A stretch of DNA of 64,000 nucleotides, taken from positions 96,001-160,000 of the IMG/VR virus record IMGVR_UViG_3300044856_000216, one strand, 5' to 3'. The notes beneath the pieces were generated by a model that did no database searches, was not told where the DNA came from, and was given only the letters and a program-made list of their open reading frames with translations. Origin of the DNA: a virus. How positions within the stretch are numbered: position 1 is the first letter of the stretch; each line of letters begins with the position of its first letter. Positions 3,220 through 29,860 of this stretch are shown one piece after another. The position numbers and the translations under genes are program-made.

Positions 3220-3531
3220 TTATTTTTCCTCCTTAATATCATCAGTAAAATAAATGTATTTAAACCATGCACCGCCCCATTCAAGAGCAAGTTTTCCGTT
3301 TGATTTATTCACTAAATCTGAAATTATATATTGTGTGTTTCTATCCATACCACCAGTTGAACCAGACCAATTGATACATAGCTTAACCCCATCTTTATCC
3401 CAATATGTTGTTGTATATGGATCAGTTCCGTTGCCATCTCTATAATCATTTAAATCAATATTTGTTTGTGTTTTGACAAATTCGATTATTGCATCATGGT
3501 TCTTTTTATAAGTTGAATTATCAATCATCAA
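3220..3531 (-). CDS. hypothetical protein
   Basis: ORF track; packed in the minus-strand operon. Confidence 0.65.
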   Translation of the reverse strand: MMIDNSTYKKNHDAIIEFVKTQTNIDLNDYRDGNGTDPYTTTYWDKDGVKLCINWSGSTGGMDRNTQYIISDLVNKSNGKLALEWGGAWFKYIYFTDDIKEEK

Positions 3532-3932
3532 TATTCCTCCTCATAAAATTTAATTGTTCTTTCCTTTTCAGCTTCATATTTAACTTTATCAGTGAATAAT
3601 GTAAGATAAATATCACCCTCTGTATATGTAAACACTGCCATCTGTTCATCTGAATAAGCATAAGAACTATATCCGTCTACCTGAACCAAGTCGAATTTGC
3701 ATTTCTTTGCGAACTGGTAACTTAAATCAGACATCCAATGTCCACCTAACATGTAATTACCATTTCTATCTTTTGTCTCTTCCATGAAGTTTACATTTGC
3801 AATTCGTTTTGTATCTTCATTTAGTGAATATGAAGATAAATCTAGGTCTGCAATTTCATATTCGCTTTCTACTTTCTTTACTCCAAGTTTTCCAATTAAT
3901 TCAAAATATTCATTTCTCGGAACATATTTCAT
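3528..3932 (-). CDS. hypothetical protein
   Basis: ORF track 3528-3941, trimmed to ATG 3932 after AAAGGCAGG. Confidence 0.65.
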   Translation of the reverse strand: MKYVPRNEYFELIGKLGVKKVESEYEIADLDLSSYSLNEDTKRIANVNFMEETKDRNGNYMLGGHWMSDLSYQFAKKCKFDLVQVDGYSSYAYSDEQMAVFTYTEGDIYLTLFTDKVKYEAEKERTIKFYEEEY

Positions 3933-7582: not shown

Positions 7583-7918
7583 TCACTCACTTTCATTTTC
7601 AAACTCGTCAATAAACTTTTGTGTAAACCTACCTACTTTGTAAGTTCCATAGTTTACCTTTACCTCATCCGTAATTTCCAGATATCCGTTCTCAACCATT
7701 GCATCAATCAGATCAGGGCAATCTGTGCTTAAAAATGATTCTCCCTCATCAAGTGAATACTGTGGAATATTGATTGTTACATCTCCATACAATTCGCCTT
7801 TTTCATCACCACTTGCAACAAACGCAAGAACTGCTTTTCTATGGAACATATCTGCGTATGTATCTACTACAAAAGATACTTCGCAATCATTTACTTTTAT
7901 TGTTTTCATTTTCATCAC
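7583..7918 (-). CDS. hypothetical protein
   Basis: ORF track. Confidence 0.65.
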   Translation of the reverse strand: MMKMKTIKVNDCEVSFVVDTYADMFHRKAVLAFVASGDEKGELYGDVTINIPQYSLDEGESFLSTDCPDLIDAMVENGYLEITDEVKVNYGTYKVGRFTQKFIDEFENESE

Positions 7919-19119: not shown

Positions 19120-19315
19120 AATTTTTAAATTTACAGAGTAATTTGTGAAACAAATTGCGCTGTAAATAGTCTGTCTTATTAAATAAGTTATATATCTTCT
19201 TTCAGTTCAGTTGACCTACACAAAAGTGTAGTCAAAATTCTCATATTTTAAAATTGGACGTACACAAAAGTGTAGTTTACTGAACGCTCGTAAAGGCGTT
19301 TCTCTTTAAATAGAA

Positions 19316-23080: not shown

Positions 23081-25948
23081 ATGACAAACAATAACGGAGT
23101 TTACATACCATCTATTGATGCAAAGGATATTTATTTATCAGCACATTACATTGAGGAAAATCCAGAAGGATATAATTTAAAGCTTAAAGATGGACAATAT
23201 AATTTACGAAAATTTATTAACACACTTGATTATAGCTTGGATCTTATAGAACTAAAAGATATTTATTATAGAAAATTCAGGAAACATGATTTTTCATTTA
23301 GAATTAAAAAACACGATTATTCTGTAAATGTAATTAATCTCACATTTAAGTATTCTGTAAAAGAATGGAATCAGATGAACAAAAATACTTTTGTCAGACT
23401 TGGATACGATTATAGGAATCTCTCTTTCGAAGATGGTATTGCTAAAAATAGTGAAGGTGAAATTGTCGGAATTAAGACGAATGAAAAAATTGAAAACCCA
23501 ATTGATATACCAAAGCCATTTGTTAAAAAGCAGGTAAATATCTATGATAAAAAGGATAAAACTGTTATTAAAGAGATTCAAAAGCAGTACCATAAAAAAG
23601 GCGAACCTAAGACTATAAAGACAAATGCAGAACTTAGAACTGAGTTGTATAAAGATGGATTTATCTGCAATGGTACTAAATATTGTCGAATGAAACGCTC
23701 TACTGGTTCAGCAAGAGTTGGTAAATGTCTCTTTATCAGAGAAGATTTATATGAACCAATTTTAAAATTCAGTTCAGGCGGTCTTAAATACAGCCAAGGA
23801 GATCCGATTGATTTAGCTGCATATGAGGGATATATTGCTCTCCCATCTAGTAGCATTATTGATACCATTCCAATTAAACCAGAAAATATTCTTTTAATTG
23901 ATGATTATGACAGCGTGTTTAATGAGGACGTAATCGAGACTCATGATGAAGATGGATGGCTTAAAACTACTGAAAAGAATTGTGAAATTACAAATACAAT
24001 TTGGGATGGTCAGTCTCTTATGGATATATCTCTATTTGGTGATTATTCAGAATATGGTATGCTTCTACTTAGAAATCTAATGTTCAAGTCTTGTTGTTTC
24101 AACTGTAATATCCAACAATGGTTTAAAGATAATAATATAACAGATGTGTCTCAGCTTAATGGTAAAACAAGAGCTACACGCATTGAAGATGTAAAGTTAA
24201 TTACCACACCTAACAGTATTAAATATTTGAAATTTAGTACATGGGATGAATGGCTTGACCACTTATATCCTGATTTTGGTGTTGTAAAGCATGATAAGAA
24301 AACTCACTTCTTTGGCGGTCGTTTGGTACAGACTCATTATCAGTTGCTCAATACCCTTCAGATGTCAAAAGATGAAGTAAGAGAATTCTTGCAAGAATCA
24401 TTTGACTTCGCACAAATGCTTAGAGATAGACCAGAAGTTGTACGCTATTACATTAAATATCCTGATATTGATGAAATGTCACCTATGGATAAACCTATGA
24501 GTAGCAAGAATGATGTGGTTTATAATTTAATGTGTGTAAATGATAATTTTACCAAGACAAAATATTATCAAGACTTTTTACATGATTTATTGGCATCATA
24601 TTACAAGAATCTTAAAAATGGACATATTTATGTAAATGGCAATTATTCTACTCTTCTTGGTAATCCAATAGAGATGCTACAGCAATCAATCGGTAAGTTT
24701 GAAGGAAAAAGTCAAATTGGAATTGGTAATATACATAGTACACGCTTTGAATATAATAAAACTCTTCTTGCCAGTCGTTCACCTCATGTTACAATTGGAA
24801 ACATTTGGCTTCCATATAATACAGAGAATAAATTGATAGATTGCTATCTCAATCTTACAAATGAAATTGTGTGTATTAATTCCATTGGAGAAAATGTATT
24901 ACAGAGACTATCGGGTGCTGATTTTGACAGTGATACAGTAATGTTGACAGATAATGAAAAACTCATTCGTGCAGCAAAAAGAAACTATCAGTTGTTTAAA
25001 ACACCAACTGCGAATGTTGATTCTACGAAGAAAAAAAGATATTATACACCAGAACAGCAAGCAGATCTTGACATCAAAACATCTGTAAATAAAATCGGTG
25101 AGATTGTTAATCTATCTCAGGAATTAAATTCTTTACTTTGGGATAAGATGTATCATGGTGCTACTTATAATGATATTAGGGAGTTATATTATGATATATG
25201 TCAATTAGATGTAATGTCTGGAATTGAAATTGATAAGGCAAAGAAAGAATTTATTATCAACAACGGTAAAGAGTTAGATAAACTACGTGAAAAGTATGAT
25301 GAACTTTTGCGTGAGTATGAAGAGAATGAAGAAGGCGAATTAGTAAGAGGCAAAAAGCGTATGCCACACTTCTTTTCTCATATTTCTAAGCAAAAGGGAT
25401 ATTATAATCCTGATAAAAAACATTATTGTAAATGTCACACTTCAATGGACTATTTACAGACTATTATTAATGGATTCAAAATTAAGAATCCATATAAGAA
25501 GGATTGGCTTCCATTTGTATCTATATTAGACAACTCTTTATTTAGGACATCTAGCATAAATCAAAAACAGATAAATCGAATTTATAGTATTTTAAAGAAA
25601 TACATAAATGAAAGGAAAAATATATTTGCCATTGATTCTGACTCAAAAGAAGAACGAAATGATAAAGCAAATAAGCTTAAAGTTGATTTAATTGCAGATA
25701 TTGAATCAGAAACAATTGGTTTTTCAACATTATATCGTTTACTTTCTTCTCTTGAAGATAAAGAAAATTCTCAAATCAAAAATCTTTTATTAGAAGTTTT
25801 GTATCTTTGTGGTAATGATAGTTTTAATAAAGCTGTTATCCAATCTAAAAATGAAATTCTCCAATTAGAAGATAATGGATCTGACATTAAATTATTTAAT
25901 ATTGGGTTTAAAATTACAAAAAAACAAGTAAATTCGGAAATCGAGTAA
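23081..25948 (+). CDS. YonO-like single-subunit two-barrel (DPBB) DNA-dependent RNA polymerase
   Basis: SRSPHVTIGN (nt 24773-24802) lies ~40 aa upstream of GADFDSD (nt 24914-24934). This is the same arrangement as NRAPTLHRLG...NADFDGD of RNAP beta-prime and of YonO/RdRP-type enzymes. 955 aa. An HU-like gene lies downstream, as with yonN/yonO in SPbeta. Confidence 0.75.
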   Translation: MTNNNGVYIPSIDAKDIYLSAHYIEENPEGYNLKLKDGQYNLRKFINTLDYSLDLIELKDIYYRKFRKHDFSFRIKKHDYSVNVINLTFKYSVKEWNQMNKNTFVRLGYDYRNLSFEDGIAKNSEGEIVGIKTNEKIENPIDIPKPFVKKQVNIYDKKDKTVIKEIQKQYHKKGEPKTIKTNAELRTELYKDGFICNGTKYCRMKRSTGSARVGKCLFIREDLYEPILKFSSGGLKYSQGDPIDLAAYEGYIALPSSSIIDTIPIKPENILLIDDYDSVFNEDVIETHDEDGWLKTTEKNCEITNTIWDGQSLMDISLFGDYSEYGMLLLRNLMFKSCCFNCNIQQWFKDNNITDVSQLNGKTRATRIEDVKLITTPNSIKYLKFSTWDEWLDHLYPDFGVVKHDKKTHFFGGRLVQTHYQLLNTLQMSKDEVREFLQESFDFAQMLRDRPEVVRYYIKYPDIDEMSPMDKPMSSKNDVVYNLMCVNDNFTKTKYYQDFLHDLLASYYKNLKNGHIYVNGNYSTLLGNPIEMLQQSIGKFEGKSQIGIGNIHSTRFEYNKTLLASRSPHVTIGNIWLPYNTENKLIDCYLNLTNEIVCINSIGENVLQRLSGADFDSDTVMLTDNEKLIRAAKRNYQLFKTPTANVDSTKKKRYYTPEQQADLDIKTSVNKIGEIVNLSQELNSLLWDKMYHGATYNDIRELYYDICQLDVMSGIEIDKAKKEFIINNGKELDKLREKYDELLREYEENEEGELVRGKKRMPHFFSHISKQKGYYNPDKKHYCKCHTSMDYLQTIINGFKIKNPYKKDWLPFVSILDNSLFRTSSINQKQINRIYSILKKYINERKNIFAIDSDSKEERNDKANKLKVDLIADIESETIGFSTLYRLLSSLEDKENSQIKNLLLEVLYLCGNDSFNKAVIQSKNEILQLEDNGSDIKLFNIGFKITKKQVNSEIE

Positions 25949-26066: not shown

Positions 26067-26390
26067 ATACAACAAGAAAAAAAATATTACAATCAACGAT
26101 TTATAATAAATCAAATTCAAAATGATACTGGCTGCTCTGAAAGAGATATTGGAAGAATATTATCGTCTTTGCGAGATTTGGTAAAGGATAAACTTAGTGA
26201 TAGTGAAGATAGTGAATTAAAAATATTCCCTGGACTAAAAGTAACTTCAAGATATATACCAACTGAGCAGTCTAATCTTAATTTCTGTAATAATGGAACA
26301 ATCAATTCTGATTTTCTATTATATCTTGATGGCGAATTCAGCCATAGATTCAAAGAAGAAATAAAACAATTACATAAAGTAAAACAATGA
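26067..26390 (+). CDS. HU/IHF-fold DNA-binding protein, apparent AUA start
   Basis: ...FIINQIQNDTGCSERDIGRILSSLRDLVKDKLSDSEDSELKIFPGLKVTSRY... fits HU helix1-helix2-beta arms. Helix 1 lies upstream of the first canonical start (TTG 26169). In-frame stop at 26058. AAAGGAG-9 nt-ATA at 26067. Confidence 0.6.
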   Translation: MQQEKKYYNQRFIINQIQNDTGCSERDIGRILSSLRDLVKDKLSDSEDSELKIFPGLKVTSRYIPTEQSNLNFCNNGTINSDFLLYLDGEFSHRFKEEIKQLHKVKQ

Positions 26391-26414
26391 AATCAGCTTT
26401 TCTTGGCTGATAAA

Positions 26415-26432
26415 ACAGAGAATAATAAAATG
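26415..26432 (+). promoter_or_regulatory. ACAGAGAATAA motif copy, ending in ATG-TAA
   Basis: ACAGAGAATAATAAAATGTAA. TTGGCT lies 17 nt upstream of TAAAAT in this copy only. Confidence 0.55.
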
Positions 26433-26532
26433 TAAACACCTTAAGTATATATTCATTGTACTTTACCTTTCTATAATCGGTGACTGTACTACAGTTCTTG
26501 TAGTATGGTCACTGATAATTCTTAAATATTAT

Positions 26533-26606
26533 AGCGGAATGACGAGCAATGGAAGCTCACTTGGCTCATAACCAAGAGTATGCAGGTTCGAGTCCTGTTT
26601 CCGCAA
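26533..26606 (+). tRNA. tRNA with CAT anticodon, initiator-like (A1:A72 mismatch)
   Basis: AGCGGAA-TG-(AC)GAGC-AATGGAA-GCTC-A-CTTGG-CTCATAA-CCAAG-AGTAT-GCAGG-TTCGAGT-CCTGT-TTCCGCA-A. Two extra nt precede the D-stem. Confidence 0.75.
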
Positions 26607-27435
26607 CTCTCCTACTTGTAGGCGGCAGGTTTCGTGTCGTTAAATAAACTTAGCAATAAGGATAAAGCAGGAATGTCTTTAGTTTGCATAAGACACTGCG
26701 ACTGCGCATAGTAGTTTGACGGAAAACACAGATAATCTATACCAAACCTAAAATCAGAGGGCTACTGCTAATGATATGGCTTGGTAGGGGTGATGAAAAA
26801 CGCCCTGTATTAACATGGAAACATGGGTATAATTACTGTCTTATTGGTGCGATTTCCGCAAGAAAAAGTGCTGATATTGATTGTTGTAATGTTTCTTAAT
26901 GCGAAAGCAAGGAACAGAACAATAAAGCAAGTCGATAGCAAGACGAACAGAATGGTGATGATTGGGCTGTACTCAAAAGGTACAGATGGTCAAATGTACA
27001 CCTCATCGTTCATATCATGCAAAAACAAATTACAACATACTTTTGAAATAAAAATATAATGCATATTTATATTAAAAGCAAATTAATATTTAAAGAATAA
27101 GCAAAAGTGTGTATGACCGCAAAGAGACAAACAACTTATTCATCTGCAATATGATGACATATAGCACTCGCAAGGTACTATATGAGAAAATACAAGTAGA
27201 CGCAACCGTAAGAGATTTGCACTCTCTGAACCCCGCAAGGGACGATGTATCGAAAGGAAATCTATAATGCTTTGTGGTAAGAGTTTGCCAATTTTCGCAA
27301 AATTGGTGTTGTTGTTACCTACAGTCTAATCGACTGTGTGATAAATTGTGTCCAACCACAATAGATGGTAACGTGTTAGGTCAATATCTCAGCCTAAAGA
27401 AATAAAGTCTCATACTTCGGTATGGGATTTTTTTA
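26607..27435 (+). ncRNA. candidate large structured non-coding RNA (~830 nt; GOLLD/ROOL-like genomic context)
   Basis: No SD-led ORF. Flanked by two tRNAs. Many short helices with GNRA loops and several perfect 6-8 bp hairpins. Ends at a UUCG-loop terminator. Confidence 0.45.
27408..27435 (+). terminator. intrinsic terminator (UUCG tetraloop)
   Basis: TCTCATAC-TTCG-GTATGGGA followed by TTTTTTT. Confidence 0.8.
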
Positions 27436-27439
27436 TTTT

Positions 27440-27514
27440 GAGTGTGTAGCTCAGTTTGGCAGAGCACGTGACTTTTAATCACGGTGTCGATGGGTTCAAA
27501 TCCCTCCACGCTCA
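27440..27514 (+). tRNA. tRNA-Lys (TTT) with an imperfect T-stem
   Basis: GAGTGTG-TA-GCTC-AGTTTGGCA-GAGC-A-CGTGA-CTTTTAA-TCACG-...-ATGGG-TTCAAAT-CCCTC-CACGCTC-A. Two T-stem mismatches. Confidence 0.75.
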
Positions 27515-27550
27515 CTACTATCCTACTTTGTAGGAAATAAATTAAAGGAT

Positions 27551-27721
27551 GTGAAAATTATTTTATTAATTAACAAAACAGAAGCTTTTGCAATGAGGGA
27601 GCTTATTGGGAAAGAGAATGTGAAAAAGACTTATAGTGGTCATGCAAAATACTATCTGGTTGAAGATGACCAGAATTTAAAAGCTTTGAGTGATTATAGA
27701 AAAAGTAAAATCGTTGGATAG
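27551..27721 (+). CDS. 56-aa hypothetical protein
   Basis: Own translation (GTG start): MKIILLINKTEAFAMRELIGKENVKKTYSGHAKYYLVEDDQNLKALSDYRKSKIVG*. The start codon is uncertain. Confidence 0.45.
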   Translation: MKIILLINKTEAFAMRELIGKENVKKTYSGHAKYYLVEDDQNLKALSDYRKSKIVG

Positions 27722-27755
27722 AGACGAAATCTAAAACGAAAGGTGGTCGGAAACC

Positions 27756-29195
27756 ATCGCAAAGAAAAAACATGAAGTAAAAGTAGAAATTATTGGAGGT
27801 AACGCTGAAGGTGTTACTGGTAGTTGTACTCGAATAAAAACTTCTGAACATTGCTATCTTTTTGAGTGTGGAATGATTCAAGGCAATCATACTGTGCTTG
27901 AAAATTATAGAGCCAATATGAAATATATTCAAAAAGTAAGACCACAAGAAGTCGAATTTATTATTGTTGGACATCTTCACGCAGATCATATAGCCATGAT
28001 TCCAACATTATATGCTCGTGGAAAATGTAATGCAAAAATAATTGTACCTAAAGGTTCAACTTCGATTCTAAAAGAAATGTGGCTTGATTCTTCATATATT
28101 AATTGTAGAGATATTGAAGTCATAAATCTTAAAAATGAAAGAAATTATGAGCCGTTTTATACTGAAGATATTGTATATAAAGCACTCGAATTTGTTCAAG
28201 AGATTGATTCTGATAAGATAGTAAATTTATCTGATGAACTTGCTATTAGATATACTGACGCAGGGCATGTTCTTCTATCTAAGCAATGTGAAGTATATAT
28301 AAACGGAGGTTCACATACTAGAAAAATTCTGTTTTCAAGTGATCTCGGTAATATTGCCACACAAGATACAAGAGTTTTTGTTGAAGATTTTAAACCTGTG
28401 TCATCGGCTAATATTGCAATAATGGAATGTACTTATTGCAGCAAGGAAAGACAATGTACTAAAGAAACATATAAAAAAGATATAGAAAAAATCAAATCTG
28501 TTATAGAACAATATTGTGTTGACAATAATGCAAGAGTTCTTATTCCGTCATTTTCACTTGACAGAACTCCATATATCTTATGGATTTTATATTCCTTATT
28601 TGGAAAAGATGCAAATTTCAAAGTACCAATTTTAATTGATAGTCCATTAGCAAATAGATTGTTAGACTGTTACTCTTCTATTCTTGAAGGTGATAAAAAA
28701 GAATTATTCGATGAAATGATGTCATGGAAGAATGTTCAAAGAATTATTCAACCAGAAAACAGTAAGGCAGCTATTGCAGACAAAGGTGCAAAAATCATTC
28801 TTAGTAGTTCAGGAATGTTGACAGCAGGGAGGTCAATTAAGTGGACTCAGAGTATTTTACCAAGAGAATCTGATTGTATCTTATTTATGGGATATTCTGG
28901 TGAAGATACATTAGCATGGAAAATAAAACATGGTAAAGATAACAAAACAATTAATATTAATGGCAAACCTTTTAAGAATAAGGCGCAGATTTACGATTTG
29001 AAGTCATTTTCTAGTCATATGCAGCGACAGGATATGATTAATTATTACAAATCTATAAATTGTGAAAAAATTTATTTAGTTCATGGTGATTCAAATAAAA
29101 TTGAGTTTAAACATGATTTAGAAGATGCAATATCTGATTGTCTTAAAACTACAAAAGTTATTGCTGTTAATAGCGGTACAAAAATCTCATTATAG
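27756..29195 (+). CDS. metallo-beta-lactamase fold / beta-CASP-type nuclease, apparent AUC start
   Basis: HLHADH motif. The N-terminal strand VKVEIIGGNAEGVTGSCTRI... lies upstream of the first ATG (27873). In-frame stop at 27732. AAAGGTGG-9 nt-ATC at 27756. Confidence 0.75.
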   Translation: MAKKKHEVKVEIIGGNAEGVTGSCTRIKTSEHCYLFECGMIQGNHTVLENYRANMKYIQKVRPQEVEFIIVGHLHADHIAMIPTLYARGKCNAKIIVPKGSTSILKEMWLDSSYINCRDIEVINLKNERNYEPFYTEDIVYKALEFVQEIDSDKIVNLSDELAIRYTDAGHVLLSKQCEVYINGGSHTRKILFSSDLGNIATQDTRVFVEDFKPVSSANIAIMECTYCSKERQCTKETYKKDIEKIKSVIEQYCVDNNARVLIPSFSLDRTPYILWILYSLFGKDANFKVPILIDSPLANRLLDCYSSILEGDKKELFDEMMSWKNVQRIIQPENSKAAIADKGAKIILSSSGMLTAGRSIKWTQSILPRESDCILFMGYSGEDTLAWKIKHGKDNKTININGKPFKNKAQIYDLKSFSSHMQRQDMINYYKSINCEKIYLVHGDSNKIEFKHDLEDAISDCLKTTKVIAVNSGTKISL

Positions 29196-29221
29196 AGAAA
29201 TATTACGAAATTGGAGGCTAA

Positions 29222-29860
29222 ATGCCTATGAATAAAGATTATTTACAGTTAGAGTTTGATAATTTAGGAAGTGAAGCAAATTACAAACTTGCAGATCCGA
29301 CTCTTGTTGATTATTATAAGCGATTAAATAATCGTGAAATTCTTATTAATCAGGATATTGATGACGGAATTGTAGAATGGACTCAAGAAATAGTTGAATG
29401 GAATAGAGAAGACAAGGATATAGCGATTGCCGAAAGAAAGCCAATTAAGATTTGGATTAATTCAAATGGTGGTTCTCTTAATGCAATAAACGAGCTTATT
29501 AATATCTGTAATCTTTCTAAGACACCAGTTTATGCTATTGGAATGGGAAAATGTTACTCCGCAGGAGGGCTTTTGCTTATGGGTATTCCAAGGGGTAACA
29601 GATATATTTTGTCATCTACTGAAGCACTTATTCATGATGGCTCTACAGGCAGTTACGGAGACACTGGCAAGGTACTTGATGATTTAGAGAGAACTAAGAA
29701 AATTGAGGAAGATACAAAACAGTTTATTTTAAGTCATACAAAGATTACTGAGAGTGAATATGATAAAAATTATCGTAAAAATTGGTGGTTAGATGCTAAC
29801 GAAATTATTGAAAAAGGCGTGGCTGATCACATTATTACAAATATTGAGGAATTATTTTAA
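29222..29860 (+). CDS. ClpP-family serine protease
   Basis: GKCYSAGGLLLMG (Ser), LIHDG (His), WLDANEIIEKGVADHII (Asp region). Confidence 0.8.
   Translation: MPMNKDYLQLEFDNLGSEANYKLADPTLVDYYKRLNNREILINQDIDDGIVEWTQEIVEWNREDKDIAIAERKPIKIWINSNGGSLNAINELINICNLSKTPVYAIGMGKCYSAGGLLLMGIPRGNRYILSSTEALIHDGSTGSYGDTGKVLDDLERTKKIEEDTKQFILSHTKITESEYDKNYRKNWWLDANEIIEKGVADHIITNIEELF

Follow-up and report, generated by a model that had tools for sequence, protein, structure and literature searches.

GOLLD RNAs are among the largest non-coding RNAs of bacteria and phages; the structure of their cage was solved in 2025. In the general plan, a 5' domain that varies precedes a 3' domain conserved in all members, and the linker is variable and unstructured (PMC12286853). 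The env-38 GOLLD, from a marine metagenome, forms a 14-mer cage as seen by cryo-EM (PDB 9MEE; Kretsch et al. 2025, PMC12286853). This cage has D7 symmetry, is stable at nanomolar concentrations and holds the disordered linker inside; its half-shells are joined by two symmetric self-kissing contacts, made by the P21a and P21b loops, and every conserved loop other than L11a takes part in a contact (PMC12286853). The expression of another GOLLD rises in phage lytic growth (PMC12286853). The GOLLD of S. agalactiae, with ~700 nt, assembles into a 12-mer, and its 3' domain alone mostly into a 10-mer; it lacks P9, P11a-c and P21b (reviewed in PMC12990946). In some of the GOLLDs found in tRNA arrays and phages of Mycobacterium, the linker contains a tRNA, as far as the work of Morgado et al. 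(2020) is described in PMC12286853 and PMC12990946.

Here, we describe an RNA in a 64,000-nt stretch of viral DNA (positions 96,001 to 160,000 of IMG/VR record IMGVR_UViG_3300044856_000216), called the window below. The segment from about 26608 to 27435 on the + strand is very probably a GOLLD-family RNA of ~790-830 nt, representing a divergent subfamily of large uncultured phages. Coordinates refer to the window unless a locus is named, and the features are collected in Table 1.

Locus and match to the GOLLD model

The slot that holds the RNA is flanked by tRNA-Met and tRNA-Lys; four further tRNAs are no more than 8 kb away, and phage-type genes (terminase, protease, exonuclease and integrase) lie close by. 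A preliminary description of this DNA had placed an RNA candidate between tRNA(CAU) and tRNA-Lys, and ARAGORN and Rfam agree on both of these tRNAs and on the + strand. The UUCG-loop terminator that it saw just before tRNA-Lys is recovered by the pattern scan as 27404-27431 plus a T-tract, with its end 4 nt 5' of the tRNA. Three terminator-like sites occur in the region against 0.6 expected in the pattern scan, and the terminator is kept in most homologues, those with canonical GOLLDs included. The 13-bp hairpin that had been noted upstream is likewise present in the sequence. It lies outside the GOLLD RNA: a related phage locus (L006) carries the same hairpin directly 5' of tRNA-Lys with no GOLLD between them.

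Table 1. Features of the GOLLD locus and its flanks, in window coordinates
Feature	Position	Strand	Basis or remark
Conserved 50-nt element	26386-26435	+	Hairpin ATCAGC..GCTGAT, then motif AACAGAGAATAATAAAATG (26414-26432)
13-bp hairpin	26480-26522	+	Seen in sequence; upstream of tRNA array
tRNA-Met (CAU)	26533-26607	+	ARAGORN; Rfam tRNA 47.6 bits; CCA not encoded
GOLLD 5' domain	26608-26949	+	342 nt, compact; covarying fold
5' hairpin	26611-26624	+	Covaries by eye: CCUAC/GUAGG, CCCAU/AUGGG, UCUAU/GUAGA; misaligned by MAFFT
String GTCGTT-AAATAAA-hairpin-GGATAAAG	26636-26667	+	Common to env-38
GAAA-capped hairpin CATG-GAAA-CATG	26814-26825	+	Sequence; resembles L11a of env-38
Hairpin TGC-GAAA-GCA	26900-26909		Sequence
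GOLLD conserved 3' domain	26950-27395	+	Rfam RF02032, covariation; ends with terminal AUCUCAGCCU
First hairpin of 3' domain, UCAAAAG loop	26950-27011	+	
Hairpin CTGTAC-n7-GTACAG	26967-26985		Sequence
A/U-rich variable linker	27012-27115	+	Poorly alignable among homologues
L20 hairpin	27140-27157	+	
CGCAAG hairpin	27158-27184	+	Further helices beyond
Remodelled P21 module	27202-27248	+	Stem enclosing two hairpins, replacing canonical P21a/P21b pair
P21-module hairpin AGAG-AUUUGCA-CUCU	27211-27227	+	RNAalifold, covarying
Hairpin CCC-GCAA-GGG	27232-27241 (27231-27241 in P21 module)		Sequence
Hairpin CCAATTTT-CGC-AAAATTGG	27288-27306		Sequence
Hairpin ACAGTC-n5-GACTGT	27321-27337		Sequence
Hairpin ATTGTG-n6-CACAAT	27345-27362		Sequence
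Intrinsic terminator	27404-27439	+	12-bp stem, UUCG loop, U-tract; pattern scan
tRNA-Lys (UUU)	27440-27515	+	ARAGORN and Rfam; downstream flank of GOLLD

Further upstream, the motif copy that had been reported near 26415 belongs to a repeated element. On its + strand, the window has five copies of the motif AACAGAGAATAATAAAATG where 0.25 would be expected; the copies, at 19315, 20169, 26414, 62183 and 62490, align with each other and often follow directly after a hairpin. The element at 26386-26435 is 88-93% identical in three related loci (L001, L006 and L033), with different DNA on one or both sides, and a sigma-70 scan gives only TTGGCT-17-TAAAAT, at chance level. The recurrence and the changing flanks suggest that the element, which precedes the tRNA-Met/GOLLD unit, is a probable phage-specific promoter and mosaic module boundary. 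At the junction at 26380, the mosaicism of the genome is strong. One relative (L002) is 98% identical over 26380-29236 and has nothing in common with the window upstream of 26380; another (L025) shares the upstream 955-aa gene region and lacks the GOLLD cassette.

In a permissive Rfam scan of 26300-27800, GOLLD (RF02032) matches 26950-27395 on the + strand with 87.7 bits and E = 5.4e-23, across model positions 1-416 of 416. Because RF02032 models the conserved 3' half of GOLLD only, the variable 5' domain would correspond to the 342 nt that precede the match (26608-26949). The score falls under the Rfam gathering cut-off for GOLLD of 150 bits, which is an annotation cut-off and not a biological property. 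A standard Rfam scan therefore reports no GOLLD here, and at gathering thresholds the whole window returned six tRNAs and nothing else. That the match falls below 150 bits is the reason for speaking of a divergent subfamily; given the E-value, the synteny and the helices that are kept (see below), we read the score as a sign of divergence rather than exclusion. Highly conserved (upper-case) model positions are identical in the window in 84 of 123 cases (68%), compared with 30% of the other positions. The conserved strings of GOLLD are all present, namely the UCAAAAG loop, AGCAAAAGU, CUCGCAAGG, GUG-GAUAA and the terminal AUCUCAGCCU, and GUGGAUAA is found with a 1-nt insertion that makes it read GUGUGAUAA.

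The preliminary description had left the choice between an RNA of GOLLD or ROOL type and a new class, and had named Rfam models and covariation in homologues as the means of deciding. The GOLLD part of that proposal stands, with the E-value of 5.4e-23 over the full-length model and with covariation that supports both halves of the RNA in 20 homologues. The other parts fell: ROOL gave no match at E <= 10, introns and tmRNA were unmatched as well, and the RNA is a member of a known family, neither a ROOL nor a new class. The accession cited there for GOLLD (RF01998) was in error, RF02032 being the Rfam accession. Every hairpin that had been listed is found in the sequence where it was placed (Table 1), and the covariation-supported consensus structures include most of them. 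The RNA is assigned to the + strand because the fold of 26608-27400 is better there (z = -3.78 against dinucleotide shuffles, versus -1.76 on the - strand) and because many invariant G-U pairs are compatible with the + strand only.

The two domains and the P21 module

The RNA fits the two-part GOLLD plan, with a 342-nt 5' domain that has a covarying fold of its own and an A/U-rich linker. Both of its domains are structured, and the selection acting on it is purifying. For the 5' domain, RNAalifold on 20 homologues yields 86 pairs, with 97.9% of cells paired. Compensatory double changes fall on 46 of these pairs; shuffles give 32.9 +/- 2.3, with 0 of 500 matching the observed values, and slid controls give 3-8. 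For the 3' domain, the Rfam consensus structure was mapped onto the 20-homologue alignment, in which 87.7% of cells are paired and 31 of 88 pairs are doubly changed (17.3 +/- 2.0 in shuffles, with 0 of 500 reaching it; 0-5 in slid controls). Eleven of the 13 helices of the Rfam model are kept, being paired in 75-100% of cells.

The two helices that are not kept as aligned surround the P21 module. Helix 6 is only partly kept, and helix 7 is paired in just 3.8% of cells as cmscan aligned it. RNAalifold recovers helix 7 with a register shift of 1-2 nt, as a stem enclosing two covarying hairpins whose loops both have a GC core (UGCA and GCAA). In the cmscan alignment, the first of these hairpins appears as an insertion 5' of P21a, and P21b of the model appears as deleted; the canonical GOLLD of a sister phage (L033) aligns to both model P21 hairpins. 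The topology of P21, a stem with two hairpins, is thus kept, and the module is remodelled. Elsewhere in the 3' domain, UGCA of L20 (27145-27148) is complementary to UGUA at 26995-26998 and forms a candidate loop contact. The variable pair of this contact is GC in 18, AU in 17, GU in 37 and AC in none of 72 unique sequences, with an uncertain match to the published partner J13/15 (= L15).

How closely does the 5' domain resemble that of env-38? The env-38 sequence used here is the construct from the supplement of PMC12286853, of which 816 of 833 nt were recovered, so that its residue numbering is unreliable. The construct starts with GGTCGTCAAATAAATACGAAAGTAGGATAAAGTGGAAT, and 26636-26674 of the window reads GTCGTTAAATAAACTTAGCAATAAGGATAAAGCAGGAAT; the two starts are alike in the series GTCGTYAAATAAA..GGATAAAG..GGAAT. 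A local alignment of the 5' domain to that of env-38 gives z = 2.9, a score reached by 8 of 300 shuffles. This z equals that of the 3' domains, which the covariance model establishes as homologous, and cross-domain negative controls have z near 0. A covariance model of part of the domain (R1, 26641-26732) matched the window's own sequence and nothing else among 29 loci that include the canonical-GOLLD ones, and nhmmer profiles of both domains, run against all loci and env-38, found their own subfamily only. Sequence-only methods thus cannot bridge GOLLD subfamilies. The missing links agree with the known variability of GOLLD 5' domains, and they also mean that 5' homology rests on modest evidence. 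The similarities of sequence and position offer modest support for a 5' domain homologous to that of env-38.

The window RNA and env-38 both lie directly downstream of a tRNA-Met, have two domains with a variable internal linker and are of similar total size (~800 nt in the window, 833 nt in env-38). They share a similar 5' string (GTCGTYAAATAAA-hairpin-GGATAAAG), a GAAA-capped hairpin like L11a and a 3' domain that fits one and the same covariance model as far as the terminal UCUCAGCCU. The differences are that the 5' domain of the window RNA is ~80 nt shorter (342 versus 420 nt), that its P21a/P21b module is remodelled, and that overall sequence similarity is beneath nhmmer detection. The S. 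agalactiae GOLLD resembles the window RNA in having fewer peripheral helices and no P21b, which in the window is apparently absent in the alignment to the Rfam model. It differs in host and sequence, and next to P21a the window RNA carries an additional hairpin, which is not a simple loss. The Mycobacterium GOLLDs, as described in the two papers cited above, likewise lie within tRNA arrays of mobile elements; unlike in those with a tRNA in the linker, ARAGORN found no tRNA inside the linker of the window RNA (27012-27115). ROOL (RF03087) is also a large ornate phage RNA found near tRNAs, and forms a cage. Its model, however, is unmatched by the window even at E <= 10, and its 5' and 3' parts are intertwined, whereas the window RNA consists of two separable domains.

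Sister phages, cassette behaviour and alternative readings

Relatives of the phage were retrieved with the beta-CASP nuclease protein encoded downstream of the RNA, which gave 66 viral loci (L001-L066), mostly on phage contigs of 80-196 kb. The whole RNA is common to 23 of the 66, at 73-98% identity, and the remaining loci have different DNA in the same slot. Three of these hold GOLLDs that pass the Rfam cut-off, with 172.4 bits in L033, 176 in L048 and 173.2 in L021 (172-176 bits, against 87.7 for the window). Like the window RNA, these canonical GOLLDs precede the same beta-CASP gene by at most ~1.7 kb, and a tRNA directly follows each of them; in L033 and L021 a tRNA-Met lies ~400 nt before the 3' domain, and L033 and L048 share the terminator of the window RNA. 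They differ from it in keeping both P21 hairpins of the model, and neither their 5' nor their 3' domain is detectably similar in sequence to that of the window. Canonical GOLLDs at the equivalent position provide strong independent support for the GOLLD assignment.

Other relatives have no GOLLD in the slot, including L001, L006 and L025. In L001, whose beta-CASP protein is 100% identical, a protein gene occupies the GOLLD position. Compared with the L006 group, the window has an insertion of ~900 nt (26524-27425) that corresponds exactly to tRNA-Met, GOLLD and the terminator stem. Together, the insertion relative to L006 and the protein gene in L001 identify the RNA as an accessory element, and it is a presence/absence cassette of ~900 nt among near-identical phages. 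Among phages with 97-100% identical beta-CASP protein, the slot may contain the cassette, a canonical GOLLD or a truncated one, or lack the RNA. The truncated form, in L044 (3315-3435), covers model positions 307-415 only and lies 47 nt after a tRNA-Met; it looks like a deletion derivative of a canonical GOLLD such as that of L048. The tRNAs flanking the slot are also swapped among L001-L066 (at about 3480-3650 and 2570-2750 of the loci). The downstream tRNA is Lys, Thr, Asn, Pro, Ile, Ser or Met; the upstream one is Met or Asn, is replaced by a degenerate tRNA-like sequence, or is missing.

More than 119 viral contigs contain a 22-nt signature of the subfamily, as do two genome records, a contig of an Anaerotignum MAG and Eubacterium segne BX4. 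The latter is a cultured isolate that carries the full RNA, with 97.5 bits, between tRNAs on a 340-kb contig. The carriers are viral contigs of 80-220 kb, mostly from human-gut metagenomes. The subfamily members tested score 87-100 bits (E 1e-21 to 1e-25), none of them above 100, and when 60 kb were searched, Rfam's filters dropped four of seven. The presence of the RNA in an isolate genome as well as in more than 119 viral contigs shows that it is maintained. Among 50,697 GenBank phage records, blastn of the region returned tRNA-Lys matches only, and tblastn with the terminase reached only Bacillus phages, at 25% identity; the records searched thus contain no cultured relative of the phage. 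The part of the GOLLD alignment of Kretsch et al. consulted here has no E. segne accession and no Eubacterium or Lachnospiraceae names.

The beta-CASP/RMMBL nuclease gene itself appears to start well before its first ATG (27873). A conserved in-frame extension (..KKKHEVKVEIIGGNAEGVTGSC..) extends upstream as far as an ATC codon (27756), which a strong Shine-Dalgarno sequence, GAAAGGTGG (27740-27748), precedes by 7 nt. Of 16 loci compared, 14 keep the ATC, L056 apparently having ATT and L050 being unaligned. The pattern points to a start codon that is non-canonical and conserved, and that may serve translational control. The probable start at 27756 puts the gene ~240 nt after tRNA-Lys, and not 320 nt downstream as had been reported. 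An association of the RNA with this gene had also been implied; relatives with 97-100% identical beta-CASP protein lack the RNA, and an obligatory functional link to the nuclease was rejected because the gene is conserved in loci without GOLLD.

Several other neighbours deserve mention. Between tRNA-Lys and the beta-CASP gene is a 56-aa ORF (27551-27721) with no family match, and a counterpart of 37% identity lies just after the GOLLD/tRNA unit in a Eubacterium segne locus (L068, 1281-1448). Just upstream of the slot, a gene at 23081-25948 encodes a 955-aa protein that matches phrog_8308, of unknown function, and has no Pfam match. This protein also shows a weak match, at residues 601-680 around a GADFDSD motif, to a PHROG annotated as RNA-dependent RNA polymerase, and we presume that it may be a YonO-like single-subunit RNA polymerase. 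Distant homologues of it precede GOLLD in L070 and in L121, apparently an E. segne provirus. One relative, L037, has a skipping-rope RNA (RF02924) at 7681-7749, ~3.7 kb downstream of the beta-CASP start, with 49.5 bits against a cut-off of 36.7; the window has no match to this family at the gathering threshold.

If the low score reflected decay, the RNA would be a GOLLD pseudogene that no longer folds or functions. The sub-threshold score, the dispensable nature of a cassette that is missing from near-identical phages and the genuinely truncated remnant in L044 would all be in keeping with decay. However, homologues up to 25% divergent hold 88-98% of the pairs by way of compensatory changes, more than 119 copies of the subfamily are full length or nearly so, and the RNA of the window is full length, with both domains and the terminator intact. 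We consider the pseudogene reading very improbable.

Slightly less probable still is that this large structured RNA belongs to a new class without relation to GOLLD and lies in the tRNA array by chance. Such a class would explain why no Rfam family besides the tRNAs reaches its gathering score in the window, why sequence-only searches gave no link to canonical GOLLDs, and why the covariance model of part of the 5' domain drew a blank at canonical-GOLLD loci. It is opposed by the GOLLD match at E = 5.4e-23 across 416 of 416 model positions, by the 11 of 13 model helices that are kept with covariation, by the 68% agreement at invariant-type positions, and by the sister phages that hold canonical GOLLDs in the equivalent slot.

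The chance that the region instead encodes a small protein, with incidental hairpins, appears negligible. A 78-aa ORF with an ATG (26823-27059) does exist and is retained, in versions of 74-135 aa, in the closest relatives only; it is lost in L028 (95% identical) and in every more distant homologue, no ORF common to the whole RNA family was found among the homologues compared, and substitutions track base-pairing rather than codons. The protein-coding reading was rejected for lack of a conserved ORF, and in that sense the earlier view of the region as ORF-free holds. A different known large RNA is just as implausible: size and phage/tRNA context would suit ROOL too, but ROOL, group I and II introns, tmRNA and RNase P were absent among the 14 matches of the permissive Rfam search of 26300-27800 (E <= 10), and ARAGORN found no tmRNA.

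Proposed expression, assembly and role

The GOLLD RNA and the phage tRNA array would be transcribed together, with the element at 26386-26435 as the probable promoter. The 5' end of the RNA may be freed by 3' processing of tRNA-Met, a step suggested by the lack of an encoded CCA, and the intrinsic terminator (27404-27439) would set its 3' end. By analogy with the env-38 14-mer and the S. agalactiae 12-mer, it is likely that the RNA self-assembles without protein into a closed homo-oligomeric cage, in which the 5' domains would form the caps and the 3' domains the equatorial rings, with the linker facing inward. The copy number of the cage is unpredictable here, because the elements that differ between the 12-mer and the 14-mer also differ in the window RNA. 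P21 is the equatorial contact site and differs between those two assemblies.

As to the role of the RNA, we can tentatively suggest that it serves the phage in lytic growth in some accessory and dispensable way connected with tRNA or translation, a suggestion with somewhat less than an even chance of being right. A broader proposal, which we think rather unlikely, is that the subfamily constitutes a structurally distinct GOLLD variant, with a compact 5' cap and a remodelled P21, whose cage could differ in stoichiometry or geometry from the solved ones, combined with a ~900-nt plug-in cassette that is swapped or lost among near-identical phages. Natural plus/minus phage pairs and a cultured host, Eubacterium segne BX4, are thereby at hand for testing GOLLD function.

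The subfamily makes up a large GOLLD clade, in uncultured phages mostly from gut metagenomes, that is invisible to routine Rfam annotation. With members at 87-100 bits against a cut-off of 150, and some dropped by filters, GOLLD is commoner in such phages than annotated. Because P21 differs between the 12-mer and 14-mer GOLLDs, the window sequence is a sensible target for cryo-EM. The variants with and without the discrete tRNA-Met, GOLLD and terminator cassette offer a ready comparison for studies of function, and one subfamily member, which the cultured isolate Eubacterium segne BX4 carries in its genome, provides an experimental handle on the family.
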